A stretch of 64,000 nt of DNA from the IMG/VR virus record IMGVR_UViG_3300037245_002282. One strand, written 5' to 3'. How positions within the stretch are numbered: the first letter of the stretch is position 1; every line of letters begins with the position of its first letter. The DNA comes from an uncultured virus (IMG/VR IMGVR_UViG_3300037245_002282) (taxonomy: Duplodnaviria > Heunggongvirae > Uroviricota > Caudoviricetes). The notes beneath the pieces were generated by a model. That model was not told the origin of the DNA. It worked only from the letters and a program-made list of their open reading frames with translations, and searched no databases. This document shows, piece after piece, positions 50,820-63,999 of the stretch. Both the position numbers and the translations under genes were made by a program.

Positions 50820-52217
50820 TCAGAACCAACCAAGATTTGCAGGACTGACATTTTTGATGTAAGCATGTTGCTCTTCTTTCTTCAATGCTAAGGCCCCAAA
50901 AAGGAGCATGAGGAAAGGATATACGGCCTCATTTGTCGGATACAAATCAAACTTCATGAGGGGGAGGAACTGGAACCACTCGATTGCATCATAGATTTCA
51001 TCCATTGTAAGGATGAAAATATCAGATGTTCCGGGTAGATTCGCGTTGTCATCTACTGCCGCATCGTTAACACCGTCAACGTATGTAGCATAGTATCCCA
51101 TAAACTTAACTGTTGCTGAACTACCGGAACCCTTTTTGGATCGATATATCGCATAAGCAGTAATTGAAGCATCGGGAGTAACGGAAATATCAAATACATT
51201 TGTATCACCGACAGTAGTAATAGTGGCTGTAGCTTCAGCAGAGGCAAGACCTTCACCATAACGGTTTACAGCCGAAACTTTATAGTAGTAAACTCCCAGA
51301 TCACCAGCGGCAAAATAAGAGTCACCAGTTGCAGTTCTGGTTATGCTGTTGATAGTTACCTGTGCAGGTCGAAGGGCTGTCAAAGTTGAAACTACGGGAG
51401 CCGCACCTTCAGTGATAAATACATCGTCAAGCATTTCCAGTTTACCGAAAGGAGTCGGATACTCATTAAAAATAGTCGCACCAACATCCTGACCTGACTG
51501 GAACCGTACACGGTCTCTGATCAGATTCTGAAGATCCTGATGAACCATTGTGGAAGAAAGCAGCAAGCTGCCTTTTCCATACTGATCACGAATCTGGCGT
51601 GAACCGTCATTGATCAGTTTTTCAACCGAGGAACCGGAAGCAGTTGTACCGCGAGCGTCAAGGACGTTTGTAGTAGCCTGCTGTTTAATACCTTTAGGCT
51701 GATTAGGAAAAAGTGTATCATTCCCGTTAAACATTGCTTTTTCAACTTCACGGATAACCCACAGAGCACCGGCATTCTGCTCAATAGTCAGAGCATTTTC
51801 GATCATATTTGAAAGTGTAGCCTGTAAAGTCGCCTTACGGAGAGTCTGCAAATACTTTGCAGTCTCATACACACGGGCAATAGTCTGATCAGCTTCCTGA
51901 CTTGCACCTCCTTCAGGTACCCATGCACCGTCACTTGATCCAACAGCCGTTCTTTTGTCCCACTGGTGAACAGGACTGGCAATCGGTTTTTTCTTAACAC
52001 GCTGAAAAAGACGCGCTTCGTCCTGAGACCAAAGCACATTTACGAGCGTATTTTCAAGAGATTCAGGGATTAACGCACGACCACCGGTCATTGCTCCGGC
52101 GTCTACGCCGGACCCCGCTGTTAATGCTTTGCTGAGTTCCTGAAGAACTTCAACATTTCCAAAGTCTCCATGCCCCACAAAGTTTTGAGGGAACATTCCC
52201 GGATCTAGATTCATCAT
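50820..52217 (-). CDS. major capsid protein (HK97 fold, SPO1/K-like)
   Basis: ELSKALTAG...TGGRALIPESLE; WVIREVEKAMFNG; DARG; YYYKVSAVNRYGE; LLFGALAL...IKNV. Confidence 0.92.
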   Translation of the reverse strand: MMNLDPGMFPQNFVGHGDFGNVEVLQELSKALTAGSGVDAGAMTGGRALIPESLENTLVNVLWSQDEARLFQRVKKKPIASPVHQWDKRTAVGSSDGAWVPEGGASQEADQTIARVYETAKYLQTLRKATLQATLSNMIENALTIEQNAGALWVIREVEKAMFNGNDTLFPNQPKGIKQQATTNVLDARGTTASGSSVEKLINDGSRQIRDQYGKGSLLLSSTMVHQDLQNLIRDRVRFQSGQDVGATIFNEYPTPFGKLEMLDDVFITEGAAPVVSTLTALRPAQVTINSITRTATGDSYFAAGDLGVYYYKVSAVNRYGEGLASAEATATITTVGDTNVFDISVTPDASITAYAIYRSKKGSGSSATVKFMGYYATYVDGVNDAAVDDNANLPGTSDIFILTMDEIYDAIEWFQFLPLMKFDLYPTNEAVYPFLMLLFGALALKKEEQHAYIKNVSPANLGWF

Positions 52218-52910
52218 TTAGTTACCCTCCTTCATAAGTGCGGCAACCTTCTGATCAAGTCTATCGTTGACTTTCCCGAGGCAACGCTTGTTAACTCGAC
52301 CTTCAATCATCCCTGATTCAGTAAGGTCGATTTTTCCTGAACGAACCCATTCACGGGATTTCTGAAGAACTGTCGCATTATCATATTCAGCAGCCGGATC
52401 TTCACCGAATCGGCTCTTATTAAGAACCGTAACTGAATTACTACGTACGGTCTGTCCTCCGATCTTATGAATAATATCGGAAGTGCTTTTTTCGAGTTTG
52501 GCGGTCATTAGGAGAACTTCTCCCTGACTTTTAACCAAAGCTTCCATTTTGTTGAGCTTAGTCTGCATAGACTTTTTCAGTGACATGATGGTTTCATCCA
52601 TCGCTTTTGCAAGCTGTCTCAGAAATGGCTCTACATCAATTGCCGCTGCCGTGTCAGGGTCATCAGCAAGGATTTCGGATATAGACTTTTCATAATCCAT
52701 ATCATCATCATCATCATCATCCTCTTCCCCTTTGTCTTCGTCGGGATCTGGATCAGGCTCGGGATCATCCCCACCTTTATCTTTTTTTGCTTTCTGAAGA
52801 TTTTTCTTCGAATCTGATTCCAACGACTTCTGAAGGTCGTCTAAGGCGTCGTTGAAATCCTTTTCGATGAGTTCATCATCCAGAAGAACTTCTTGTACTG
52901 CTCCACTCAT
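52218..52910 (-). CDS. capsid scaffolding protein
   Basis: Acidic helical protein between protease and capsid; nine [LY]xK[SA] motifs. Confidence 0.75.
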   Translation of the reverse strand: MSGAVQEVLLDDELIEKDFNDALDDLQKSLESDSKKNLQKAKKDKGGDDPEPDPDPDEDKGEEDDDDDDDMDYEKSISEILADDPDTAAAIDVEPFLRQLAKAMDETIMSLKKSMQTKLNKMEALVKSQGEVLLMTAKLEKSTSDIIHKIGGQTVRSNSVTVLNKSRFGEDPAAEYDNATVLQKSREWVRSGKIDLTESGMIEGRVNKRCLGKVNDRLDQKVAALMKEGN

Positions 52911-52937
52911 ATGTGAAACCCTCCAAATAATATATTT

Positions 52938-53735
52938 TTATCTTCTCACCCCAACGACGTTGGGAATCTTTCGAGAAAGATAGTTTATAATCTTAGCTGC
53001 TGAGTTACCCTCGTAACCGCGATCATATACAAAATTGACCATATCATTATAGCTTCCTATTTTGTTATCTCTAACTGCTTTAAGAAGATCACCAAACATT
53101 CCGCGTAATTCTTCTGAGAGAGGCATTGTATCCGTTATTGAACCCTGAAGACTTTCATGTGTAAGAGCACGTCCACCTGTAAATACATCAGCATTTACAC
53201 CACTACCGGCCATAAGCGCTTTAGCAAACTCAGCAAACGGTACCATCTGTACATTACCAAGAGTTCCATCGTTAATCGGTCTATGAGTAATTGCAGTCTC
53301 ATCCCATATAACTTGTTTAATCGCATCTTCACTTTTTTGAAGAATACCCCCGCCGATACTTGCACCAAGTTTCATTGCTCCCGAATTGATATTATCCCAT
53401 AAGTTAATCGCAATTTTATTCTTCTGATACAAGAATCCTTTTACTAATGTTTGACGATTCGAAGTAAACTTGACATCCAGAGGTTCACCGATAATAAATC
53501 CCGGATCGTGAGTTGCTTTGTGTTTATGATCCCATGATATAACACCGTGAGTTAGATAATAATCAGCAGCTTTCTCTAAAGCTGCCATATCCACGGTCTC
53601 ACCGTCAGCATCTTTCATTTCATTGGAAGCTTGAAGATAAACAATCCACTGTCCATTTTCTTCAACACCTTTAATCATGACATCGTTGAAAGGACTGTAA
53701 AATGGACTGCTAATATGTGCAATAACCTGTCGCAT
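52938..53735 (-). CDS. prohead protease (HK97-type)
   Basis: ASNEMKDADGE, WDH (His), IGEP, GASIGG (Ser), AITHRPIN; start probably 53735 after GGGAGA. Confidence 0.88.
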   Translation of the reverse strand: MRQVIAHISSPFYSPFNDVMIKGVEENGQWIVYLQASNEMKDADGETVDMAALEKAADYYLTHGVISWDHKHKATHDPGFIIGEPLDVKFTSNRQTLVKGFLYQKNKIAINLWDNINSGAMKLGASIGGGILQKSEDAIKQVIWDETAITHRPINDGTLGNVQMVPFAEFAKALMAGSGVNADVFTGGRALTHESLQGSITDTMPLSEELRGMFGDLLKAVRDNKIGSYNDMVNFVYDRGYEGNSAAKIINYLSRKIPNVVGVRR

Positions 53736-53752
53736 TATATCTCCCATGTTAA

Positions 53753-53841
53753 AAACCCATTTCACTTGATATAAAGTATCAAATAAAATGGGTTTCTATG
53801 AACCTCGTTAATATTCAAATGATCACCCGAGTGATCATTTA
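53753..53841. promoter_or_regulatory. two inverted repeats upstream of the head operon
   Basis: aaacccattt 53753-53762 / aaatgggttt 53786-53795 with inner ttgatat/gtatcaa; perfect aaatgatcac-ccga-gtgatcattt 53817-53840. Confidence 0.7.
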
Positions 53842-53864
53842 CCGTACTTAAACTATATCACGAG

Positions 53865-54047
53865 TTAGTCATTTGAAACAAGGGCTTTACAATGACGACA
53901 TTTTACCTCTACCAGTGCTTTTTCTAAACCCTTACCTTTCAACAGAAGAGACCCACAATCCGGGCAACGGAACTCATCAAGATCACCGCCTATTACGAGA
54001 TTAAAACTTTTTTTAATAGGTTGTTTAAATCCCTTCTGTTCTTTCAT
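53865..54047 (-). CDS. Mu Com-like zinc-ribbon protein
   Basis: EFRCPDCGSLLLK...VEVKCRHCKALV. Confidence 0.75.
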   Translation of the reverse strand: MKEQKGFKQPIKKSFNLVIGGDLDEFRCPDCGSLLLKGKGLEKALVEVKCRHCKALVSND

Positions 54048-54053
54048 GATTAG

Positions 54054-54365
54054 CTATTCACCGAACACTTTTGGGAAACTCTGTTCCAGAATCTCAAACG
54101 CTACCGTAGAGAGTGATAACGCAGCTAATCGTCTAAGCGCTGATTTTACTTCTTTCCAGCTTGGAATGTCTTCCGGTTCTTTACCTACACATACGGGTTT
54201 TTCGTAGGTAAAATCTTCCTCATCGGGATCAACATCCTTTTTCAGCTCATCACCCTCCCCAACATCATCCTTAGATATAGATTGAACATCTTTACCTATA
54301 GCGTTAATCTCGTCATCCTTTGTAGTCAACACAGCGCTCTCCTCATTCTCATTCTTCTTTGCCAT
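54054..54365 (-). CDS. acidic hypothetical protein
   Basis: GAGGAG RBS; first gene after the 54399-54426 promoter-like site. Confidence 0.6.
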   Translation of the reverse strand: MAKKNENEESAVLTTKDDEINAIGKDVQSISKDDVGEGDELKKDVDPDEEDFTYEKPVCVGKEPEDIPSWKEVKSALRRLAALSLSTVAFEILEQSFPKVFGE

Positions 54366-54398
54366 TGGTTCATCTCCTCATATTATTTCAATAGTTTA

Positions 54399-54447
54399 AG
54401 TATATCATACGTTCAACTATTCTCAAAACCTTGTTCTACTAGAATTA
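54399..54447 (-). promoter_or_regulatory. putative promoter (TTGAGA-16 bp-TATACT, extended -10 TGn) with operator copy 2 just upstream of -35
   Basis: Minus strand TAATTCTAGTAGAACAAGGTTTTGAGAATAGTTGAACGTATGATATACT. Confidence 0.55.
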
Positions 54448-54449
54448 CC

Positions 54450-55613
54450 CTAATTCCACGGGGTAGGTTTGATCAATTTCTCAGAATCATCGATGGGTTT
54501 TTGCCGTCTCGCTCCCTCTGCCATAGCTGCTTCCATAGAGGCTCTGAACCGTGCATCAATATCTTCAAACCCCGGAATATGTTTAACCCATGTACATCGG
54601 CAGAAAGGATGATTAGTCCCGGCAGATACCCACCAGTTAGCGCGACGTCTACCGTAATTATTTTTACCCGGCCATATCGCAGTATACATTTCACCGTTAA
54701 CCATTACCTGATCATCAGTGACCGGAGGTTCAGGTAATAAAACTACGATTTGATTATTAACCATACTGAGACAAAACGGACAAGCTTCAGAGCTGGAAAT
54801 CCCCTTCATAAAAATTGTCTCTCCCGGTTTAGCCCGTTCCATTTCTGTAATAAGTTGTCCATTATTCATAGATGTCCCGATCTCAGTCTCTGCAATCCGT
54901 CGCCAGTCCCGATTCATTTCTCCAAACTTATCAAATAAGTTTTCCCGTAGTTCTCTATGATTTATTCGATTCTCTATTCCATTCTGTAGAGTATCGTGAA
55001 TCTTTCTGTACTGATTCTGTGTCAGATTTGTAATCAACTCTCCTGCGTGTTGTTGAGCAAATGTCACAGTGTTTCGCCATAACGGACCTTTTAACTTATT
55101 CATGGTATCATCTATAGCATCCTGTATACTCAAATATCCTGAATACAGAGAATCATTTATACTCATTCCCTTAAGAACTTTTCCCATAGCAAGAGCCTGA
55201 GTAGCAATCCGCTCTTCCTCGGGTGCATAAATATAATTAAGTACTTTTAAGATATCCCGCTTAATTATTTTCCACTGACCCTTAGTCAACGGCTTTCCGC
55301 TTTTAGGATCAATAAAAATCCGGTTGTTCAATAGGAAAGGATCAGTAGAAGCTTTTTCTATACCGATCCATCTTGCAGATATTGTATTAAACAGCTTTAA
55401 TAAATGGCTTTCAACCCGATCCTTGCTATACGCTTCAGCTTCCCGGACTGCACGAAACGGAGATATCTCTTTCTGTTGTCTTTCAGAATCATAACCCAGC
55501 GCCTTAGTCAACGCGATTACTGCCTGTTCATATTTTAAAGCAGGTCGATGATATAGATTTTTTAATTCAAGTATAATATGCGATTCATTAAGTTGAGCAC
55601 AGTATTCACACAC
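54450..55613 (-). CDS. MuF / SPP1 gp7-like minor head protein
   Basis: NRDWRRIAETE, ACPFC, HPFCRC; no C-terminal toxin extension; GTG start after GGAGGGG. Confidence 0.85.
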   Translation of the reverse strand: MCEYCAQLNESHIILELKNLYHRPALKYEQAVIALTKALGYDSERQQKEISPFRAVREAEAYSKDRVESHLLKLFNTISARWIGIEKASTDPFLLNNRIFIDPKSGKPLTKGQWKIIKRDILKVLNYIYAPEEERIATQALAMGKVLKGMSINDSLYSGYLSIQDAIDDTMNKLKGPLWRNTVTFAQQHAGELITNLTQNQYRKIHDTLQNGIENRINHRELRENLFDKFGEMNRDWRRIAETEIGTSMNNGQLITEMERAKPGETIFMKGISSSEACPFCLSMVNNQIVVLLPEPPVTDDQVMVNGEMYTAIWPGKNNYGRRRANWWVSAGTNHPFCRCTWVKHIPGFEDIDARFRASMEAAMAEGARRQKPIDDSEKLIKPTPWN

Positions 55614-55815
55614 GTCCGTGACCCCTCCCTGCAAGGAAGGAACAATAGTTTCGCCATACAGAAGAATCTATAGAAATGTAATTCTTTATCATTTTACTAC
55701 CTTCATCCATACTGCTATTCAAGGCTTTTTTAATCTCAACAGGAGGCTTAGAACGTCCCATCAATTTACACCACTTTGAAAATCTGTTTCCGGTCTTTAT
55801 CGCTTCCGATCTCAT
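55606..55815 (-). CDS. small hypothetical protein
   Basis: ATGA overlap with the upstream stop; contains IKKA. Confidence 0.5.
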   Translation of the reverse strand: MRSEAIKTGNRFSKWCKLMGRSKPPVEIKKALNSSMDEGSKMIKNYISIDSSVWRNYCSFLAGRGHGRV

Positions 55816-56708
55816 GAGCCATACTTCTCCATATAATCCCTATAACCCTTTGAATGTTCCATCCTAAAGATGAAATTATTTCGGGTCCTTTTACTCGCTA
55901 TCTGATTCAATAGAAATGCTTTAGCAAAAGTATAAGGAATCTCGATATCAGCTTTAGCTGTTGCCCGTGTACGTTCCTTCTTTTTCACAATCTGTTTAAC
56001 ATGAATTACAAGACCGTCACCTTTATATTTCAGTTCCATATCATCGCCCTTTTTAGGGAGAATCCATTTCCGCTTCCCGTTAGGTGTTCCTGATATTATC
56101 TTCGCAGCGTTAGTTTTCAGCATAGCACGGATATGAATTGTAGATAATGCCCCGGTTACAGACCATCCGCCCATTTTCTTTTTATCTGTCTTCACGCGGG
56201 AGGCTTTCATAACAGGAAGAGACATACCGTGCTTTCCTTCCTCATAACCTCTGTATTCCTTACCCTGTTTAGATGTCTTAGTAATCGTCAATTTGACCTT
56301 TGGTTTTGTGGAATACAATTCCTTCAGTTGAATTAAAGATCTTCCGAACAGATCCACTATAGCTTTTTTATCTCCGACAGGCGCTTTGATTGCTTTAACC
56401 CTGTCAACTACTTCTTTATATATTTTATGGGCTGTATCTGCCGGACCCTCTTTAATGGAGTTAATCAAACCCTCATAATCAATCAGATTTCGGGAAAGCA
56501 TAACATCTTCAATTATATTGCCCAGATTCGTGGTCATGGCATAATTGTAAAAGTCTTTAGCCCGTTTCTCAGCACCCCCGATTACTTTAGCTTTTTTACC
56601 TTCGGATACTATTACCCATTTCTTACCGACTTTCTCACGAGTTTTCCCATCTTTCCATGTTCGGGTTTCCCCTTGTGCTGCGGCTTTAGCCTTTAATATC
56701 AGGATCAT
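55812..56708 (-). CDS. basic protein, probable virion-internal protein
   Basis: N-terminal ILKA followed by GETRTWKDG...KVGKKW; Lys-rich; FAKA near the C-terminus. Confidence 0.6.
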   Translation of the reverse strand: MILILKAKAAAQGETRTWKDGKTREKVGKKWVIVSEGKKAKVIGGAEKRAKDFYNYAMTTNLGNIIEDVMLSRNLIDYEGLINSIKEGPADTAHKIYKEVVDRVKAIKAPVGDKKAIVDLFGRSLIQLKELYSTKPKVKLTITKTSKQGKEYRGYEEGKHGMSLPVMKASRVKTDKKKMGGWSVTGALSTIHIRAMLKTNAAKIISGTPNGKRKWILPKKGDDMELKYKGDGLVIHVKQIVKKKERTRATAKADIEIPYTFAKAFLLNQIASKRTRNNFIFRMEHSKGYRDYMEKYGS

Positions 56709-58462
56709 GTTTTCTCCCTATGTAAAGGTTCATCGAAAGTAGCTTCCATTCTAGCAATTCTATCTGCATCATCAGAAAATAGCATTTGCATGGATTTCAA
56801 TAAATCCATTTCATGAACTTCAGCATATACAATATGATAACCACCCACCTTGTTATCAAGTTTAGTAATTTTAATTGAAGGTGATCTTACTATAAACTCA
56901 TGTTCATCTTGATGTTGACTAATTCCACTATCTGAAACAGCCTTATCACTTTCGTCAACTACATCCTCAATCAACTGATCCAGATCAATACCTTGAATTC
57001 TTTTACTCGTATCATCACCATCTATACTATTTTTCAATATAATTAAAGTTCCACCACCGGACGCAAACCCCTCTGCCGGAACCTTCTTATTAGAAAAAGA
57101 CGCCATACCTAAAGGCATAATATCTCCAATCTGAGCTTCTTTCCATGCATCGTTAGAGGTTCCGCGATATAACTCATCATATTCCGCATATATCATATGT
57201 GATATTACAGTTTCACCTATGTTATTATATGCAACCGATTCAGGACCAAGCCCAGCACGTCTATTAGTATCCTCTTCTTTTACAAGTTTTCTAGCTCCTT
57301 TAACCACAGATCCGTCAACCCATTCCCCAATATATTTTAAAGCTTCACCAGTCCATTCTATATCATTACGATCCGTCATTTCAAAATCATCAATATCAGT
57401 CTCCCCTGATTCTTCTTCATACCCCTCTAATTTTTCCTGTACCCATTCTTCAGTTTCTTTTATACTTAAAGAATAATGAACCATTTCATATAAAGCTTCA
57501 CCCTCTTCTACTTCGCCATAATCATTAGAATCACCAAAGTTCCATACCTCAGTTTCTCTCAGTTCAGGTTTATCTTGTTTCTCCCACCATTTCTTGATAT
57601 CATCGTAAGATATTGAATAATCTTCAGGTGTAATATTTTCTTCAATATAAACCAATGCTCTAAGCGTTTCAGTCGCTTTGATCATATCCATTTCACCCGC
57701 TAAAGCAATACGAAATTCTTCCTCATTATTATTAGATGTATCGTTAATAAAAATTTCAATATCCTCATTAGTTTCCAAATGTTCCTTAATCCAATCTACA
57801 CTCATTTGTCGGATACCAGCATCATCATCATCCATGATAACCTTCATTATATGATCAGTAGCTAATTTGATATCTGCTTTGGAGATGGGAGTTGTCATAT
57901 AAAAATCATCAGTATCTTCAATAACATGTTTAGCGGCCATAACTGAATCTTTAGAAGAAATTACTGATTTTACTTTTTCTTCACCAATAGCTTCCAATTT
58001 AGTTATAGCATCTTTTTTAAAAGCTTCGGGAGTAATATCAAACGCCTCGCTACTCATCAATTGTTTACCCGAGCGTACCTCTGTAATTGACATCTTATAG
58101 GATGATATTTTATTACTCTGATTGATCTGTTTATGAAGTACAAATGACTGACCATATTTCTCAAAAGTCCCTAGAATAGCTTTCTCAGGGAGTCGTACTG
58201 CTTCAGTCTCTGCAATTCCATGTTTATCAAACTCACCTTCTTTAGGTCGAGAAATATAAAATCGATTATCACCTCTAGGACCTTTCATAGCCGGAGCTGG
58301 CAATGCAGGTAAATCCAGATGATGAATTGCACTAGGTTTCTTTGGAGCCTGATCAGGGCGAACGTAGAATGTCTGCATAAACGGTTTCCCTTTTCGAGAT
58401 ACCATTTTCTTTACTGGAACAAGTCCATTTCTACTCATTGTCGCCTTGATAAATAGTCTCAT
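56705..58462 (-). CDS. ADP-ribosyltransferase (R-S-E class) domain protein, probable virion-internal
   Basis: LYRG...MASFS...QDEHEFIV in the C-terminal domain; N-terminal FIKA plus GLVPVKKMV..KGKPFMQTFYV; LLKS after the domain. Confidence 0.72.
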   Translation of the reverse strand: MRLFIKATMSRNGLVPVKKMVSRKGKPFMQTFYVRPDQAPKKPSAIHHLDLPALPAPAMKGPRGDNRFYISRPKEGEFDKHGIAETEAVRLPEKAILGTFEKYGQSFVLHKQINQSNKISSYKMSITEVRSGKQLMSSEAFDITPEAFKKDAITKLEAIGEEKVKSVISSKDSVMAAKHVIEDTDDFYMTTPISKADIKLATDHIMKVIMDDDDAGIRQMSVDWIKEHLETNEDIEIFINDTSNNNEEEFRIALAGEMDMIKATETLRALVYIEENITPEDYSISYDDIKKWWEKQDKPELRETEVWNFGDSNDYGEVEEGEALYEMVHYSLSIKETEEWVQEKLEGYEEESGETDIDDFEMTDRNDIEWTGEALKYIGEWVDGSVVKGARKLVKEEDTNRRAGLGPESVAYNNIGETVISHMIYAEYDELYRGTSNDAWKEAQIGDIMPLGMASFSNKKVPAEGFASGGGTLIILKNSIDGDDTSKRIQGIDLDQLIEDVVDESDKAVSDSGISQHQDEHEFIVRSPSIKITKLDNKVGGYHIVYAEVHEMDLLKSMQMLFSDDADRIARMEATFDEPLHREKT

Positions 58463-58465
58463 TAC

Positions 58466-58834
58466 TTAACTCCCGATATATGTCATGACTACCAAAGCTA
58501 TCATACACGAAGCTGTAAATAAGGATAGCAGTTCAACCCTATGAGTTTTAAACCACTGCTTATCCTGCTTTTCATCTGAAATATGCGCTTCCAGTTTTCG
58601 ACAGATCATATTCTCAACTTGATTTTGATCTATACCGCCCATAGCTTCTAATCGTCGAATTGATTCAATGATTTCAAATACCTTATCATTTGTATTTGTA
58701 ATTTTAATATCGTAACCATCAAACAGTTTTTCTCGAACCTCGCTAACCTTATCATCAATTTTTTCCAGTCGGCTATGCATATCCATAATTATTACTTCAT
58801 GTTGTGCTACCTTAGTCTCCACATCATCTTTCAT
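58466..58834 (-). CDS. coiled-coil protein with C-terminal TM
   Basis: AGGAG RBS; LLSLFTASCMIALVVMTYI. Confidence 0.55.
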   Translation of the reverse strand: MKDDVETKVAQHEVIIMDMHSRLEKIDDKVSEVREKLFDGYDIKITNTNDKVFEIIESIRRLEAMGGIDQNQVENMICRKLEAHISDEKQDKQWFKTHRVELLSLFTASCMIALVVMTYIGS

Positions 58835-58835
58835 C

Positions 58836-59174
58836 TTAGTACGTACTCCTATCGAACTCCCCCGGAATAACATATAGTTTCGCGGCGGATATAGATTCCT
58901 CGGACATGGTGCGGGCTTTCTGCAAGGATTCCCGCTCCCCCAACTTATTTACATATCGATCTTTCAGATCATAATATGCTTCGTCGTAAGGTCCTTCTTT
59001 TTTCTGATCAAGACGCACACGTATAGCCTTCATATCAGAGTTTAATCGGTCAATGCCTTTGTTGGCCGCTTCTATAACCTGTTCTTGTTCTCGAACAATT
59101 ACCATTGATTTCATGTCCAGTTTTTCCCGGACTTTATCGAGTTGGTCAGCACTCTTCTCTGATTGATTAAGCAC
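58836..59174 (-). CDS. coiled-coil hypothetical protein
   Basis: GTG after GAGGAGG; overlaps the end of the giant gene. Confidence 0.55.
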   Translation of the reverse strand: MLNQSEKSADQLDKVREKLDMKSMVIVREQEQVIEAANKGIDRLNSDMKAIRVRLDQKKEGPYDEAYYDLKDRYVNKLGERESLQKARTMSEESISAAKLYVIPGEFDRSTY

Positions 59175-62100
59175 TTCGTGCCTCCTCTTCATACTTATTC
59201 AGCATACCGAGAAATCCTTCATCATCCAACGCTGTTACTGATCTTGGATTTCCAATAATATTCATTTCTTTACGTTTAGTTGCCATTAAATCTTCAGATC
59301 GCATATCCATAGGGTTCACACCCGAAAGAACATAAGTTGAAGTGTCCTTATCCTGACCTTTTCGAAACACCCTCGCATTTCTCTGATCAAAAGCCGCTGC
59401 ACTTTCCGGTATATCCAGATGAAAAGTAACTGACCCACCTGCTTGTAGGTTATGACCTGATTCAAGACTCTTGGTGCCTATAATAAACCGAAGAGGATTC
59501 CCCGGATCATTAAATGCCGCTTTAATCTTTGTCAGTTCTCCGGGAGATGTCCCCCCGTGAATAGTACCTACAGATCCCTTACCAAACTCTTTAACAAGTC
59601 TTTCATGAGTTGTCTTCATAGCTTTCAATACGGGTTTACCCGGCTGGGATACATGAATTACTGCTTTCTCTCCGGGATGAGATTTCTTCATTGTATCTAT
59701 AATGGTATCTACTTTCTTATTCTCACTCGTAAACCCATTCGATAAAATAGAATAGTTTCTGGAATCCCTTCTCGCTGACGCACCGGGTAATTTATTATCC
59801 CGCTCTTCTCTATATTGTCGCTCACTGGCTGCATAAGCTGATCGCTGCTCAGTAGACATCGGCACTCTAAGCGTATTGATTTTATTTTCAACAGGTAACT
59901 GATTTTTCTGAGTATAAACCCAGTCCCCGAGTTCTTTCCTGAATGCGTCGTTAGCGGCATCCTGAAAAATACCCGTACCCTGATTAAGCCCTTTATATCG
60001 TTTCTCAAAATCCGCCATTGAACCTAAACCGTGTTCAGGATCAATAAAATTGATTTTCCTGTAAAGCTCTTTCTTAGCTGTTTTAATATTGGTTCCAGAC
60101 ATCGCCATTTTCAAAGGGACATCGGCAAGCTGATCCATAGCTTTATATCTTCCGGCAGCACCGGACCCCGCAGTCATTTCATGAATCTCATCCACGACTA
60201 CCATATCATATCCGGCCTCCTTCAAAATTGAAGCATCCTGTCTAAGAGCATCCTGTGATATAATGTGAATCCCATCCTGTTCAAGATGTCGTCTATGCCG
60301 TTCAGTTTTTGAAGTATTAGCGGTAGACTGCCTTACAAGTTTTTGCATTTCAGGTTCTAAAAATACTTCTCTCTGTTTATGAAAATCTCCACGTGTAGCA
60401 GATGGTGTAACCACTAAAATCTTTTTAGCACCTTTATTCGCCATGGCATCCATGATCCCCGCATAGGCAATACCAGTTTTTCCAATACCCGCTTCAAAAT
60501 CCAATAACACACGACCTTTCTCATTAAAGAAACGTAATCCAGCTTCCTGTGCCGCGTCAAACTTGATATTCGCTTTAATTCCCGGTGGCTTATACCCTGT
60601 ATTGGCTTTATGAGCCTTAATATCCGTTAATTTATCTCTAGTAGCAGAATATTCAGCCGCACCTTGAAAAAAACTGTTTAGCGACTCTTTAGGAATTTCC
60701 ATTACCAGCCGCTTACCCCTACCGCGCTTAACCGTTCGTATAGAGTAGGTACCTTTAGCCAATCCGGCGCTTTTAGCCCGTTCTCGCGCTCTGGCAAGGT
60801 CTTTACCCATATCAACCTGAACAACATCAGCTATCGGGTCCTCAAGAGCATTGATCATATGTGCAGCTGCCCGAAGTGATCCGACGGCAGTTCCCAATGC
60901 CCTCTGTGCTGCGGTGATTTGTTTCAGGGCATGACCGTTAGCAGAGGCCATAGATAAAATCGCTTCCGCATCATCTTTGTCTCTCGCCAGTTCCCGAAGA
61001 TTATCCGCATTACTTAATCTGTGTTTGGTTTCTTTTAACGCACGATCAACCACTTTCCCACGCTCTGAAGCCACATACTCTTCAAGAGCTTTTCGAACCA
61101 CTTCCCCTTTACCATCCTGTTGGATCTTCGCAGTAACCGCTCGGGCTACAGCTTCAATACCCAGTTCCTTCACGGTATCTGTTGTAAAAGTAGCACCGGC
61201 CCCATATACATCACCAATCAAACCGTTAAGAGCAGATATAGCACCTTGATCGATATGCGTGTTAATTGCCTGACTCTGGGCATTAAGCATATCATACAAT
61301 TGAATATTCTTAGCTGTTTCCACCTGATCCTTGACCTGCTTCTGAATCTCATCCATTTCACTGGTAGTAACCGAAGCAAATACCGCTCCGACTTTCAGGT
61401 CTGTTGGAGTATCTGCTGATTCGGCACCAATGGCCTTGATCGCTTTTCGAAATTGTTTTCTGGCTGACAGTATTTCAAGAGCTTTATCCTTATCAAGTAA
61501 AGACTTCAATTCCGGTGCGGCGTTAGGATCTTCAGGCATATAATCTTTCATCAGAGTATTGAGTGCTTCACGTTCTACATTCTTAATCTGTTTAATAACA
61601 GCTTTTGCAAGTTCTTTTTCAGATTGCTTTTCAACTTCCTGTTCAACCGTCTTTTTATCCATGGTCTTAGTTGCTTTACGCGCTTCAACCATGCTGCGTG
61701 CTTTATCTTCCAGTTCCTTCATCTGCGCAGCGGTTATATTATCCCGGATCTCATCGGGAGTAACACCGAGAATAGTTGTAACTGATTCAGTATACATAAC
61801 TCGAGCTGTTTTTCGGGCAGCATATTGGACCTTTCGTTTCTGAGCAGCTTCAGCAATTTCTTCCTTAGTGAGTTTCTGAGTTTCTTCTTTTTGTTTACTC
61901 TCAATACGTTTACGTTTAGCCACATAATCCTCGCGGCTCAGAATATTATCAATTTTCAGGTGACTCAATTTACCACCGGCACCGCCGACAACAACATACC
62001 CGCCACCAGCAAGGCCCTGTAAAAGAACTCTTGCACCACGAATAGTAACCCAACGCATTCCACGAGCTTTCACTTCATCGGCTGAATAGTATTTCTTACC

Positions 62101-63999
62101 GTTACCATTCGATTTTCGAAGTTCACCCAGCCAGTAAAACTTAATCGGTTTACCTTTCTCAAGAAGATACCATTGTCCAGTGGTTTTACTCTTAACCATA
62201 CTACCGTCCGGGATAGATTTCCGTACTCCAAACCTGTCTACCAGATTTGTGATTCTTTGTTCCATAATTCGCCTCAGTTTCGGGTCTTCAATACCCGCCA
62301 AAATAACACCTTTCTTAGCTAATACGTTTGTCAGTTGATCTTGAATATCAACATCTGTTACGAGACCGAACACCGAGGAAGCCGAGCGAGAGGGATCACG
62401 TAGACTCTCTACCTCCGTAACGTCGCTGTTAAATGCGGCACCTTTTGGTTTCCCCTGTGCGCGGTATCTCAATGATCCACCATTATCTATTCGCCATATC
62501 TTTGAACCATCCCATATCACATTATCATTATCCATACCGAGTACATCCCAGTTACTTACCAACGCATCGGCTACAAATCCATCTCGAATCTGGTCTCTTG
62601 CTTCAGCCTGTTCATCGCCATGAAGTTCTGATAATGGAACACCCTCAATAAAATCGGCAACCTGTACAAGCTTCCCTTCTTTATCATGAGAGAGCTGAAC
62701 ATCAGGCACATTGATACCTAATATTTTATAGATTCTATTTGCTGTATATTCATCCTTAAGATGGCCTTCACTTGTGGATCGCTTCAAAACTTTTTCTTCA
62801 CCGTTGACGAATCTAACTTTAATTGCTCCGCCAGTGGTCCCGCCCAGATTCTTAAGGCTGGCATATGATCCCATACTTTTCGGGCGTTTGCTCCCATTCT
62901 GGGGATAGATATAATTCCAGCGACCATTCTTAAAATACTTTTTAACATATTTTTTACCTACTGCTTTCTGTAGATTGGAAGACATAGATTCTTTGACTTC
63001 ATCAGATCCAAATAAGTACATAGCATATTTCAATGAAAGTTTTGTGAAAGCCTCGTTTGTATTATTGGAAGATTTACTCTTCTGAATCAAAGAAACATTC
63101 AATTTCATAAAATTGATATTAGGCCGTCCGTGAGTTTCATAATCCCAATTATCAGGAGCATACTGATCATCCCATTTAATAGATTCAGTTATTTCAAAGC
63201 CATACTTAGAATATATCTTCGGCAGAACATCACCGAAACAATCCAATTTCTTTGCACCATTTTTAATCGATGTCTTCATAATTAAAGAACCTTCACGGGC
63301 ACCCGGTTCAGAGAAAACAGAGATAAGATCTCCATCCCCTGTAATAACAAAACCGCTCTTACCGGTAGCGGATACAAATGTCTTAGCTCCTTTCTTTTCA
63401 TAATCTTCTGCACTATACGCTGTAACAAAGGCTTCAAACTCTTTGGGAGTCTTCGCGTTTCTGATAGGTATAAACTCAGCCAGTGGAACAGAAGAATAAT
63501 CCACGACCGGCGGTGCTGCTTTCTTCGCTGTGAACTCAGCTATAGGTTTCTTTTTAATCTGTTTAGGGTCACGGATATCAACCCATTTACCTTCCGAGAC
63601 TTTTCTACGACCACGGGAAACTGTACCAATCGGCATACGTTTAGCTTTCTGCATATTTGCTTTATCCCATAATTCGGTTATATATTTTCTATCTGTAAAA
63701 TCAAGTTGAGTTCCAAATAAAACGCTAATATACTTAGCACCCTTTTGTTTTAGATTAAAATACCTATGATTACCATCTTCAATATTTATATTTCCTTTAT
63801 AATCAACACTCACCCTTATCGGTTCATTGGGATTTCTAGGTTTATGTTTACCTATCGTAGTTTCTTTAGTATGCCCTTTTGTAGGCTGTATTTCAGATAT
63901 TAAGAGTCGCATTGGTTTTCTATTATTCATAAAATCAGAAGCACTAGTGTATGCTTTCGCTTCTTCGTTAATAGAATGTCCTTTTAAAGAATGCTTAAA
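59167..63999 (-). CDS. giant polyvalent protein, 5'-truncated by the window: ParB-like, GNAT-like, HipA/PI3K-like kinase, coiled coil, SNF2 helicase
   Basis: Frame open from the edge (FKHSLKGHSINEEAKAYTSASDF-MNNRK); IEDGNHR; DLISVFS...LDCF...YSKYGF; LGGTTG..K..E...NWDV...N...IDNG; DFEAGIGKT, VVDEIH, SGT, GHNLQ, QRNARVFRKGQ. Confidence 0.85.
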   Translation of the reverse strand, partial: FKHSLKGHSINEEAKAYTSASDFMNNRKPMRLLISEIQPTKGHTKETTIGKHKPRNPNEPIRVSVDYKGNINIEDGNHRYFNLKQKGAKYISVLFGTQLDFTDRKYITELWDKANMQKAKRMPIGTVSRGRRKVSEGKWVDIRDPKQIKKKPIAEFTAKKAAPPVVDYSSVPLAEFIPIRNAKTPKEFEAFVTAYSAEDYEKKGAKTFVSATGKSGFVITGDGDLISVFSEPGAREGSLIMKTSIKNGAKKLDCFGDVLPKIYSKYGFEITESIKWDDQYAPDNWDYETHGRPNINFMKLNVSLIQKSKSSNNTNEAFTKLSLKYAMYLFGSDEVKESMSSNLQKAVGKKYVKKYFKNGRWNYIYPQNGSKRPKSMGSYASLKNLGGTTGGAIKVRFVNGEEKVLKRSTSEGHLKDEYTANRIYKILGINVPDVQLSHDKEGKLVQVADFIEGVPLSELHGDEQAEARDQIRDGFVADALVSNWDVLGMDNDNVIWDGSKIWRIDNGGSLRYRAQGKPKGAAFNSDVTEVESLRDPSRSASSVFGLVTDVDIQDQLTNVLAKKGVILAGIEDPKLRRIMEQRITNLVDRFGVRKSIPDGSMVKSKTTGQWYLLEKGKPIKFYWLGELRKSNGNGKKYYSADEVKARGMRWVTIRGARVLLQGLAGGGYVVVGGAGGKLSHLKIDNILSREDYVAKRKRIESKQKEETQKLTKEEIAEAAQKRKVQYAARKTARVMYTESVTTILGVTPDEIRDNITAAQMKELEDKARSMVEARKATKTMDKKTVEQEVEKQSEKELAKAVIKQIKNVEREALNTLMKDYMPEDPNAAPELKSLLDKDKALEILSARKQFRKAIKAIGAESADTPTDLKVGAVFASVTTSEMDEIQKQVKDQVETAKNIQLYDMLNAQSQAINTHIDQGAISALNGLIGDVYGAGATFTTDTVKELGIEAVARAVTAKIQQDGKGEVVRKALEEYVASERGKVVDRALKETKHRLSNADNLRELARDKDDAEAILSMASANGHALKQITAAQRALGTAVGSLRAAAHMINALEDPIADVVQVDMGKDLARARERAKSAGLAKGTYSIRTVKRGRGKRLVMEIPKESLNSFFQGAAEYSATRDKLTDIKAHKANTGYKPPGIKANIKFDAAQEAGLRFFNEKGRVLLDFEAGIGKTGIAYAGIMDAMANKGAKKILVVTPSATRGDFHKQREVFLEPEMQKLVRQSTANTSKTERHRRHLEQDGIHIISQDALRQDASILKEAGYDMVVVDEIHEMTAGSGAAGRYKAMDQLADVPLKMAMSGTNIKTAKKELYRKINFIDPEHGLGSMADFEKRYKGLNQGTGIFQDAANDAFRKELGDWVYTQKNQLPVENKINTLRVPMSTEQRSAYAASERQYREERDNKLPGASARRDSRNYSILSNGFTSENKKVDTIIDTMKKSHPGEKAVIHVSQPGKPVLKAMKTTHERLVKEFGKGSVGTIHGGTSPGELTKIKAAFNDPGNPLRFIIGTKSLESGHNLQAGGSVTFHLDIPESAAAFDQRNARVFRKGQDKDTSTYVLSGVNPMDMRSEDLMATKRKEMNIIGNPRSVTALDDEGFLGMLNKYEEEARSA

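Follow-up and report, generated by a model that had tools for sequence, protein, structure and literature searches.

Does the protease that matures a phage head also cut apart the enzymes carried inside that head? The question is raised by the head-assembly block of an uncultured phage (Caudoviricetes; IMG/VR record IMGVR_UViG_3300037245_002282), of which one stretch of 64,000 nucleotides (nt), hereafter the window, was analysed. In this block a short motif, a hydrophobic residue, any residue and a Lys followed by Ala or Ser ([LIVMF]-x-K-[AS]), recurs in the major capsid protein (MCP), the scaffold, the prohead protease, a MuF-like head protein and several putative cargo proteins, among them a giant protein of 1,783 amino acids (aa) that joins several enzymes in one chain. 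An earlier reading made without database searches (the sequence-only reading) had taken these motifs for sites at which the prohead protease releases injected enzymes from a polyprotein, and all the sites that it named were found where it had placed them. The comparison with related phages supports selection on the motif at the capsid boundary, at about eight scaffold positions, in the protease, in MuF and at the cassette junctions of the giant protein. It also supports that the junction motif is largely kept out of folded domains, with the helicase core at expectation. The motif is most likely the cut site of the head-maturation protease, which would then probably divide the giant protein into its enzymes within the head. 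We consider cutting of the cargo in trans by this protease the best reading of the pattern, one that is likely although well short of assured. In this form the cleavage proposal keeps its capsid, scaffold, protease, MuF and junction sites, while a 'ParB' domain and several individual sites had to be given up.

The motif in the capsid protein and the scaffold

In searches against PDB sequences, the MCP matched SPO1 Gp6.1 (9vel, 4.8e-34) and the phi812 MCP (5lii). Its protein identity to SPO1-like, Kayvirus-like and a few Gram-negative phages was only 27-29%. In the MCP alignment, an L-x-K-A-L stretch at the predicted propeptide boundary (LSK↓A, where the arrow marks the predicted scissile bond; Table 1) is invariant, with a variable leader before it and a highly conserved N-arm after it. 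This site aligns with LNKA of SPO1 Gp6.1 and with VVKS of the phi812 MCP. Two further matches in the interior of the MCP are kept in only 9/16 and 10/16 sequences despite a flank identity of 63-87% (here and below, positional conservation was scored within ±3 alignment columns). Capsid proteins of the A511/Twort type reportedly mature by cleavage between Lys and Ser, a cleavage that is said to concern the capsid protein only, and HK97 gp5 is also said to be cut between Lys and Ser. The alignment of the MCP site with LNKA and VVKS fits this maturation of A511-type capsid proteins. A literature search on Lys-Ser or Lys-Ala capsid cleavage in A511-, Twort- and SPO1-type phages returned nothing usable, and a paper on Felix O1 concerns a different capsid and protease.

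The scaffold was described in the sequence-only reading as carrying nine sites, and these correspond to eight matches to [LIVMF]xK[AS] plus one YEKS. All 17 scaffolds in the alignment carry between 7 and 11 sites. Seven of the nine sites of the window scaffold are kept in at least 13 of the 16 homologues, at a flank identity of 30-53% where this was computable, and the residue at the x position varies freely among homologues.

Architecture of the giant polyvalent protein

The giant protein (P0001) proved to be longer than first read, with an additional domain in front. Its N-terminal 173 aa, which contain an InPase domain (PF18823, 7.7e-39), lie beyond the window end on a viral contig (L020) that shares 8,100 nt with the window at 0 mismatches and extends upstream of it. 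Window residue numbers are therefore P0001 numbers minus 173. The GTG start codon corresponds to the ATG of 'MKRGIITN' in relatives, and it directly follows the in-frame TAA of a 196-aa open reading frame (ORF; L020:5479-5484). The database gene call for the identical protein (P0002, 1,731 aa) begins 52 residues late, inside the InPase domain.

In order, the protein comprises InPase, a cassette labelled 'ParB' whose identity is unconfirmed, a GNAT fold, a CtkA-like kinase fold, a helical region and an SNF2 helicase. With InPase, GNAT, kinase and SNF2 joined in one chain, it belongs to the polyvalent proteins as Iyer et al. 2017 (PMC5512222) define them. A total of 73 homologues was found, of which the 47 closest share InPase, variable cassettes, the helical region and SNF2. 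The giant protein has no HExxH, HExxxH or HxxEH string, no peptidase family match and no methylase family match. Its gene lies between those of the portal and MuF.

Most of the enzyme labels of the sequence-only reading were borne out, SNF2 by Pfam and the GNAT and kinase cassettes by their predicted folds. The GNAT cassette was modelled by AlphaFold2 (AF2) with pLDDT >94, and all the Foldseek PDB matches listed (ranks 1-50) were GNAT proteins (prob 0.97-1.0), with a best E of 3.7e-4 and a TMt of 0.45-0.58 in the top ten. No Pfam GNAT match was obtained for it by sequence. Relatives of this cassette number more than 3,000, several of them fused to MuF or portal. The kinase cassette (pLDDT >90) matched H. 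pylori CtkA in Foldseek (3.8e-7, TMt 0.52), followed by RioK1 and eukaryotic-type kinases, and had a weak Pfam match to HipA_C (E 0.24). The 'ParB' label did not survive, as the cassette gave no Pfam match (E up to 5), no PDB match and no significant match to a ddrB-ParB-bearing protein. This cassette is absent from the closest relative (P0003), and its AF2 pLDDT of <50 is attributed to the few homologues found for that part.

Relatives of the giant protein carry other cassettes, each lying between motif sites. S-adenosylmethionine lyase, zeta-toxin-type kinase, NUDIX, DUF7178, DUF3293, DUF5661 and ART-PolyVal domains were observed in P0004, P0005, P0006, P0018 and P0030. The last of these also contains an intein-like insertion in the Walker-A motif of its SNF2 domain (LAGLIDADG_3 match).

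Junction sites and hairpin modules

Every cassette border of the polyvalent protein has a site, and in most cases a small basic beta-hairpin module follows immediately. In window residues, these matches are MQKA 116, IQKS 305, LQKA 343, VRKS 592, MVKS 601 and LRKS 627 (nt 63643-62110). The other matches are LAKA 797, FRKA 850, VRKA 968, MKKS 1437 and VLKA 1457. The sequence-only reading had cautioned that some matches also fall inside the helical and helicase regions, as is the case for LAKA, FRKA and VRKA in the former and for MKKS and VLKA in the latter. When sites were mapped to domain borders on the AF2 models, the expected position was found for IQKS, LQKA, VRKS, which lies just after the last kinase helix, and LRKS, which lies in a segment of pLDDT <50; MQKA and MVKS were placed in secondary structure and are considered below.

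Homology breaks and site conservation were then compared along the chain. Homology to the GNAT relatives stops at query residues 320-325, and the equivalent of IQKS in P0003 is VMKS. In full-length numbering, the ends and starts of BLAST high-scoring segment pairs on the giant protein concentrate in three stretches, 150-159, 500-520 and 760-779, which coincide with LKKA, LQKA and VRKS/MVKS. After InPase, 'KLKKS' is present in 15/16 sequences, often with a second site 0-6 residues further on that opens the next cassette. A site precedes the KY/kinase cassette in 14 of 17 relatives, and equivalents of MVKS and LRKS (TLLKS, LEKA) are kept in 16/17 and 17/17. In P0003, which is 75% identical, the five shared junction sites are all kept while the residues at P3, x and P1' change. 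In five relatives annotated with Pfam, matched stretches account for 26% of the residues but contain just 3 of the 47 sites (P 7e-4).

The remaining matches behave differently from one another. Equivalents of LAKA are found in 11/17 relatives and those of FRKA in 5/17, the latter probably by chance. VRKA is kept in 15/17, a figure that says little because the whole surrounding context is conserved. The two SNF2 matches, VLKA (5/17) and MKKS (<5/17), are probably chance occurrences.

Two of the hairpin modules could be written as patterns, both predicted by AF2 to form a basic beta-hairpin. Module A reads K-R-M-P-I-G-T-V-S-x-G-R-K-K-V-x-x-G-K-W-V. Of its 21 distinct instances, 19 have h-x-K-[ASH] in front, and the two exceptions are a false pattern match and an instance with Gly at P1'. 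Module B reads K-Y-I-K-K-x(3-6)-G-R-W-x-Y-x-Y, and a site precedes 29 of its 34 instances, three of the five exceptions standing at the protein's own N-terminus. Intragenomic DNA repeats were considered as the cause of the pattern and rejected, as no meaningful direct repeats were found among the module-coding stretches in the window.

Motif counts against expectation

Observed numbers of the motif were compared with expectations derived from composition. The scaffold (230 aa) holds 8 matches against 0.91 expected (P 5e-6), and the protease holds 4 against 0.74 (P 0.007). The counts for MuF, the 298-aa protein and the 585-aa protein are individually not significant. Taken together, the 11 head-block proteins carry 36 matches against 14.3 expected, and 24 against 12.6 when the scaffold and protease are removed (P 0.003), whereas the other 54 ORFs of the window carry 46 against 38.6, which is not significant. 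A comparison of head-block with replication proteins had been proposed with the sequence-only reading, and the head block proved to lie above background.

The same contrast was observed outside the window. Across 16 related loci (L002, L003 and L015 were omitted as near-duplicates), 379 matches were counted upstream of the MCP gene against 118.5 expected (3.2x), while 51 were counted downstream against 49.4 (1.03x). In the polyvalent family (47 proteins, the window's own included), the portion outside the last 520 aa has 354 matches against 163 expected (2.17x), and the helicase core, formed by the C-terminal 520 aa, stands at 0.98x. A further 26 more distant polyvalent proteins stand at 1.09x. 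Twelve control patterns of equal or related composition, made by reversing or shifting the motif, by changing K to R/E or with other P1' classes, ranged from 0.73 to 1.56x, and the h-x-E-[AS] pattern gave 0.95-0.96x. Additionally, in L024, a phage without the protease that encodes a MuF-kinase fusion, the motif is at expectation in both the scaffold and the fusion protein, a single case that fits recognition by the prohead protease.

The prohead protease and MuF

The prohead protease gene is conserved in 19/19 loci, and its relatives start at residue 11 of the window ORF. In the protease alignment (A3), H70, H72 and S126 are invariant. In a comparison with the MEROPS S78/XkdF-type phage serine proteases, Peptidase_S78_2 scored 14.4 bits against a cut-off of 24, with weak matches in 9 of 13 members (best E 0.017), and PDB searches with the single sequence and with a profile matched no protease structure. 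The sites of the protease differ in conservation: LEKA63 is kept in 13/15 sequences, LQKS142 in 14/15, FAKA180 in all 15 and LLKA227 in 6/15. FAK↓A is a predicted self-cleavage site, at which a C-terminal domain resembling the MCP N-arm would be freed. The profile of this C-terminal region matches SPO1 Gp6.1 residues 19-90 (E 0.038), and the capsid-like domain may offer the protease a route of incorporation into the procapsid. Proteases of two relatives (L016 and L017) contain a 40-aa insert bounded by FAKA and LIKA.

Protease residues 180-275 (window 52941-53228, minus strand), from FAK↓A on (LMAGSGVNADVFTGGRALTHESLQG...), were also observed to be a near-copy of the mature capsid N-arm (LTAGSGVDAGAMTGGRALIPESLE...).

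Both N-terminal sites of MuF are conserved (Table 1). Long MuF forms in relatives were examined as possible toxin fusions and rejected, since by sequence inspection they appear to be intein-like. These insertions (L004:5518-7626, L008:5685-7835, L009:1060-3153 and L014:1726-3645) lie just before the conserved Cys of HPHC|RCTW, as judged from the alignment. A different arrangement was observed in L018:3087-5096, where an N-terminal extension of MuF includes a site, a KY hairpin module and a stretch that by eye resembles an ADP-ribosyltransferase (ART), and a C-terminal extension begins after an LGKA site. These extensions indicate that MuF itself can carry cassettes in this lineage.

Putative stand-alone cargo proteins

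The 298-aa protein could be assigned to no family by Pfam, PHROGs or Atlas. Its homologues occur in 15 of 19 loci, and in L016 and L019 they form the C-terminal part of kinase/ART polyvalent proteins. Three matches are present, ILKA 4, VMKA 166 and FAKA 261. Within the family, h-x-K-[A/H] is found at 8/8 complete N-termini and at both fusion junctions. The sequence-only reading had proposed sites at both ends of this protein, of which the N-terminal one held. The C-terminal FAKA lies in a conserved segment, is lost in 2/10 homologues and is absent from both fused forms, for which reasons it is not counted as supported. VMKA is kept in 1/10 and is probably due to chance.

The 585-aa protein has no Pfam match by sequence. 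In Atlas, its residues 380-564 matched the ADPrib_exo_Tox, ART and Mod_ADP_RT clusters (score 0.95, TM 0.55-0.62), and the Atlas structure rows carry PF01129, PF03496 and PF26816; an ART fold at residues ~380-555 is supported by these model comparisons. The strings YRG, SFS/SFT and EHE (E-x-E-like) are aligned in five sequences and, as judged by eye, may correspond to the Arg, Ser-x-Ser and Glu-x-Glu catalytic motifs of R-S-E ADP-ribosyltransferases (Alt, Mod and exoenzyme type). The C-terminal LLKS is kept in 4/4 sequences (5/5 by eye), with a conserved 30-residue tail (DRIARME.TFD.PLHRE) after it. For the N-terminal site, inspection by eye gave 3/4, one of them (L004) shifted by 5 residues, and the column count gave 1/3. 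The ART label and the presence of sites at both ends were upheld, and two additional matches, ISKA 193 and MIKA 260, are kept in 0/4 and probably reflect chance.

Outside the window, a topoisomerase-IB-like protein (L020:3094-3981; PF01028, 2.6e-21) is encoded between the portal and the polyvalent gene. It starts with the leader MVLVIFTK↓A and then has hairpin module A, which suggests that it is packaged in the head. In the relatives P0036, P0039 and P0040, Topoisom_I is fused with InPase. Furthermore, the 298-aa protein, a DUF5661 protein and topoisomerase IB are separate genes here and parts of polyvalent proteins in relatives. With cassettes fused in some relatives and separate in others, a cut site would equalise the mature products.

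Proposed processing and its alternatives

In the preferred reading, the prohead protease would recognise hydrophobic-x-Lys and cut before Ala or Ser, with His tolerated in one module type. It would remove the 30-residue propeptide of the MCP, chop the scaffold at about 8-9 places, and trim both itself, at FAK↓A, and MuF, at the two N-terminal sites. From the cargo it would strip short hydrophobic leaders (MILILK↓A; MRLFIK↓A, together with the C-terminal LLK↓S; MVLVIFTK↓A), and it would cut the polyvalent protein at the cassette borders. Once freed, the folded enzymes would remain in the head until they leave with the DNA for the host. What the sequences show is that the motif is present, enriched, conserved in position and placed at junctions, together with the domain folds. 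We infer that the protease reads the motif, where the scissile bond lies, that the cargo is packaged and injected, and that it serves host takeover or anti-defence; the enzymes are of kinds used for such purposes. A more ambitious version sees interchangeable cassettes of protease site, basic hairpin tag and enzyme, an 'operon at the protein level' in which the hairpin would act as a head-retention or exit signal. This is a tentative idea, possible in our view but more doubtful than not.

Several points weigh against cleavage of the cargo by the protease. The support for cleavage, packaging and ejection is comparative throughout, and the homologues are related to each other, so that neither the observed/expected ratios nor the k-of-n counts are independent trials. 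Taken alone, the window part of the giant protein has 11 matches against 6.5 expected, which is not significant (P 0.066), and the control of the protease-less phage has n=1. Half of the 298-aa-type N-termini have His after the Lys, not Ala or Ser. The family placement of the protease comes from PHROGs only, with Pfam S78_2 below its cut-off. LEKA and LQKS of the protease, FAKA of the 298-aa protein and VRKA of the helical region sit in conserved folded contexts, in which being kept carries little information. The module patterns were written after examples had been seen, with the site itself excluded from the pattern. Finally, MQKA closes a predicted helix (pLDDT 74-87) that is followed by the hairpin (87-91), and MVKS belongs to the predicted first strand of module C. 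Together with the fixed spacing of module A (6 residues in 16 of 19 instances), these positions mean that the motif could be part of a structural or targeting module and not an exposed cut site.

The alternative that follows from this last point is that motif and hairpin form an uncut structural linker, or a capsid-targeting or DNA-binding tag, with the giant protein left intact and its likeness to the scaffold and MCP motif reflecting binding to the same partner. The module A spacing, the helix and strand positions of MQKA and MVKS and the occurrence of K-His variants all agree with it, and unprocessed transfer is described for the N4 virion RNA polymerase and for the polyvalent proteins ArdC and TraC1 (PMC5512222). 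However, sites with no module beside them are found after InPase (KLKKS, 15/16), after ART (LLKS), in the scaffold and at the MCP boundary; no site is found where module B is already N-terminal; and sites that stand in tandem at junctions, 0-6 residues from each other, are better explained as redundant cut sites than as a fold. We regard an uncut tag as unlikely, while giving it some weight. That the cargo matches are products of chance or composition in linkers rich in Lys, Ala, Ser and Leu, only the scaffold and MCP sites being real, would agree with the P value of the giant protein alone, with the individually non-significant counts of MuF and of the 298- and 585-aa proteins, and with the several matches that are not conserved. 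This view is largely refuted for the cargo sites by the control patterns (0.73-1.56x, compared with 2.17x for the motif), by the depletion of sites inside domains, by positions that are kept while residues change and by the association with modules (19/21 and 29/34), and we find it hardly credible.

Two further explanations accept the pattern and change the actors. The sites might be cut by a host enzyme or by an unrecognised phage peptidase, before or after injection. Iyer et al. propose embedded zincin or assemblin-like domains (PMC5512222), the specificity of the prohead protease is a prediction, and about 500 residues of the helical region of the giant protein have no assigned fold. Against this stand the absence of HExxH and of any peptidase family match in the giant protein and the presence of the same motif at the MCP propeptide, in the scaffold and in the protease itself, which leave another protease quite improbable. 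The giant protein might also be no virion component at all, only an intracellular helicase with accessory enzymes that lies in the late operon by accident, given that SNF2 helicases also serve replication and repair. Yet its gene lies between portal and MuF and beside an Alt-like ART, InPase is described as specific to phage-type polyvalent proteins that are likely packaged (PMC5512222), and relatives of the GNAT cassette are fused to MuF and to portal; we judge an intracellular role to be just as improbable as the action of another protease.

Gene order of the locus

All genes of the window are on the minus strand, and a DNA similarity search matched the window to no deposited phage. The longest contig with the giant protein is ~96 kb. 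Overall, the block begins with the portal, located outside the window, and runs through the cargo genes to MuF, the prohead protease, the scaffold and the MCP. In the direction of transcription, the span 52218..63999 starts with the giant ORF (59167-63999) and continues with ORFs of 118 and 135 aa, the 585-aa and 298-aa proteins, a 69-aa ORF, the MuF-like protein of 394 aa, a 103-aa ORF, a 60-aa zinc-ribbon ORF, the head-maturation protease and the scaffold, with the MCP just outside the span (Table 1). On L020, the region upstream of the giant gene holds the 196-aa ORF, the DUF5661 protein, the topoisomerase-IB-like protein and the portal (PF04860, 1.4e-17).

Table 1. Features of the head-assembly block (positions in nt of the window; sites are given with the predicted scissile bond as an arrow)
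Feature	Position	Strand	Evidence or remark
C-terminal 1,610 residues of the 1,783-aa protein P0001	59167..63999	-	ORF cut by window end
'ParB' cassette, window residues 2-115	63655..63996	-	DGNHR motif only
MQK↓A, window residue 116	63643..63654	-	followed by module A, KRMPIGTVSRGRRKVSEGKWVDI (63559-63642)
GNAT-fold acetyltransferase-like cassette, window residues 166-301 (P0001 339-474)	63097..63504	-	
IQK↓S, window residue 305	63076..63087	-	start of pLDDT <50 segment, after last GNAT strand
LQK↓A, window residue 343	62962..62973	-	pLDDT <50; followed by 'KY' module B (62899-62961)
Protein-kinase-fold cassette, window residues 372-591 (P0001 545-764)	62227..62886	-	CtkA-like
Triple junction VRK↓S 592, MVK↓S 601, LRK↓S 627	62110..62226	-	around small hairpin module C
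Conserved region RWVTIRG..., long helices, between junctions and helicase	60589..62109	-	no Pfam family
SNF2-family helicase core	59260..60552	-	SNF2-rel_dom 1.8e-13, Helicase_C, ResIII; PDB match 1z63
585-aa protein with C-terminal ART domain	56705..58462	-	Atlas
FIK↓A of 585-aa protein, residue 4	58442-58453	-	
LLK↓S of 585-aa protein, residue 554	56792-56803	-	
298-aa protein	55812..56708	-	
Leader MILILK↓A of 298-aa protein, residue 4	56688-56699	-	followed by beta-hairpin module
MuF-like head protein (394 aa)	54450..55634	-	Pfam Phage_Mu_F 1.8e-4, below cut-off; PHROG head-morphogenesis families
MuF LTK↓A, residue 42	55500-55511	-	kept 16/16
MuF IEK↓A, residue 92	55350-55361	-	kept 15/16
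Prohead protease, 275-aa ORF	52938..53765	-	phrog_1028 'head maturation protease' 1.2e-17
Protease FAK↓A, residues 180-183	53217..53228	-	kept 15/15
Scaffold (230 aa), eight [LIVMF]xK[AS] plus YEKS	52218..52910	-	phrog_15087 3.1e-5
MCP (465 aa), SPO1/Twort-type HK97 fold	50820..52217	-	Pfam SU10_MCP 6.5e-11, phrog_752 1e-61
MCP LSK↓A, residues 28-31, predicted propeptide boundary	52125..52136	-	kept 16/16

Some neighbouring genes were also recorded. The 60-aa zinc-ribbon ORF between MuF and the protease (53865-54047, minus strand) matches Com-like translational-regulator PHROGs (6.4e-5, 7.9e-4) and is kept in 15 of 19 loci. The portal (L020:1501-3087, outside the window) has a single motif match, LTKS, located 14 residues before its C-terminus. 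In an Aeromonas prophage (L025) with an InPase/LPD38 polyvalent protein, the polyvalent gene follows tail-fibre and internal-virion-protein genes, and no head genes were found within 10 kb of it.

Comparison with known systems

If cleavage at the motif is true, the mature injected enzymes could be read directly from sequence: a pyrophosphatase, an acetyltransferase, a kinase, an SNF2 helicase, an ADP-ribosyltransferase and a topoisomerase. It would answer how polyvalent proteins without a peptidase of their own get their domains separated, and it would provide a rule for recognising head cargo in metagenomes, namely head-block proteins that bear the scaffold and capsid motif at their domain borders. 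The rule of cleavage that is predicted is Lys-specific. Trypsin-based proteomics would hide such cuts, because trypsin and Lys-C create the same ends.

In the A511/Twort and HK97 systems, the cleavage reportedly covers the capsid protein alone, and, unlike the pattern described here, it involves no code shared with cargo polyproteins.

The predicted packaging, injection and processing of polyvalent proteins have already been published (Iyer et al. 2017, PMC5512222). Like the giant protein, these proteins join disparate enzymes in one chain and are encoded among virion genes. Their processing was assigned to embedded zincin metallopeptidases or to a C-terminal assemblin-like peptidase; the zincin-like metallopeptidase is the commonest hub domain, present in ~36% of polyvalent proteins, and it is not obligatory (PMC5512222). 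The giant protein differs from this model in that it lacks an embedded peptidase and bears the motif of the capsid, scaffold and protease at its borders. Junction motifs and hairpin modules are not mentioned in the excerpts of PMC5512222, in which 'linker' has 0 occurrences. The anti-restriction Dar cargo of phage P1 provides another very large, helicase-containing protein, one that is packaged in the head and acts when the DNA enters the host, the packaging being predicted in the present case; P1 DdrB is processed before packaging and DarB is a helicase-methylase (PMC5512222). Compared with Dar by description only, the giant protein has no methylase domain and carries other accessory enzymes.

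In T4, gp21 processes the internal proteins and both termini of Alt (PMC9026906). The T4 set of gp21, gp22, capsid-targeting sequences, IPI-III and Alt resembles the present locus in that one motif recurs in the propeptide of the capsid protein, in a scaffold with many sites, in the protease and in the cargo (injected in T4, predicted to be so here), as well as in short N-terminal leaders that end in a site and in an ADP-ribosyltransferase with sites at both termini. It differs in three respects, as described in the excerpts: T4 cleavage occurs after Glu (L/I-x-E), whereas the conserved residue here is Lys; T4 cargo consists of separate small proteins, whereas cassettes are joined here in a 1,783-aa chain; and here a hairpin follows the site and would stay on the product. 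In phiKZ, gp175 processes head proteins at S/A-x-E (PMC9026906). Together with SPN3US gp245, it offers a further likeness, a prohead protease that cleaves many packaged, host-entering proteins, among them inner-body and ejection proteins, at redundant sites (PMC9026906; see also PMC10052503 and PMC7411985). These are jumbo phages with S/A-x-E cleavage, the phage here being smaller (longest contig ~96 kb) and having an SPO1/Twort-type MCP, and polyproteins of enzyme cassettes are not described in the excerpts on phiKZ and SPN3US (PMC9026906).

No paper describing a Lys-type, motif-joined cargo polyprotein of this kind was found in a search made mostly without subscription journals, and a search there for work tying polyvalent proteins to cleavage seen in virion proteomics yielded one unrelated preprint. 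What appears to be new, as judged from the comparison of sequences, is the combination: a polyvalent protein and a motif shared with the predicted targets of the prohead protease, of a Lys type, in cassettes tagged with a hairpin. In this combination, the locus would join the multi-enzyme chain of the polyvalent proteins to the T4 manner of processing capsid, scaffold, protease and injected cargo with one motif.

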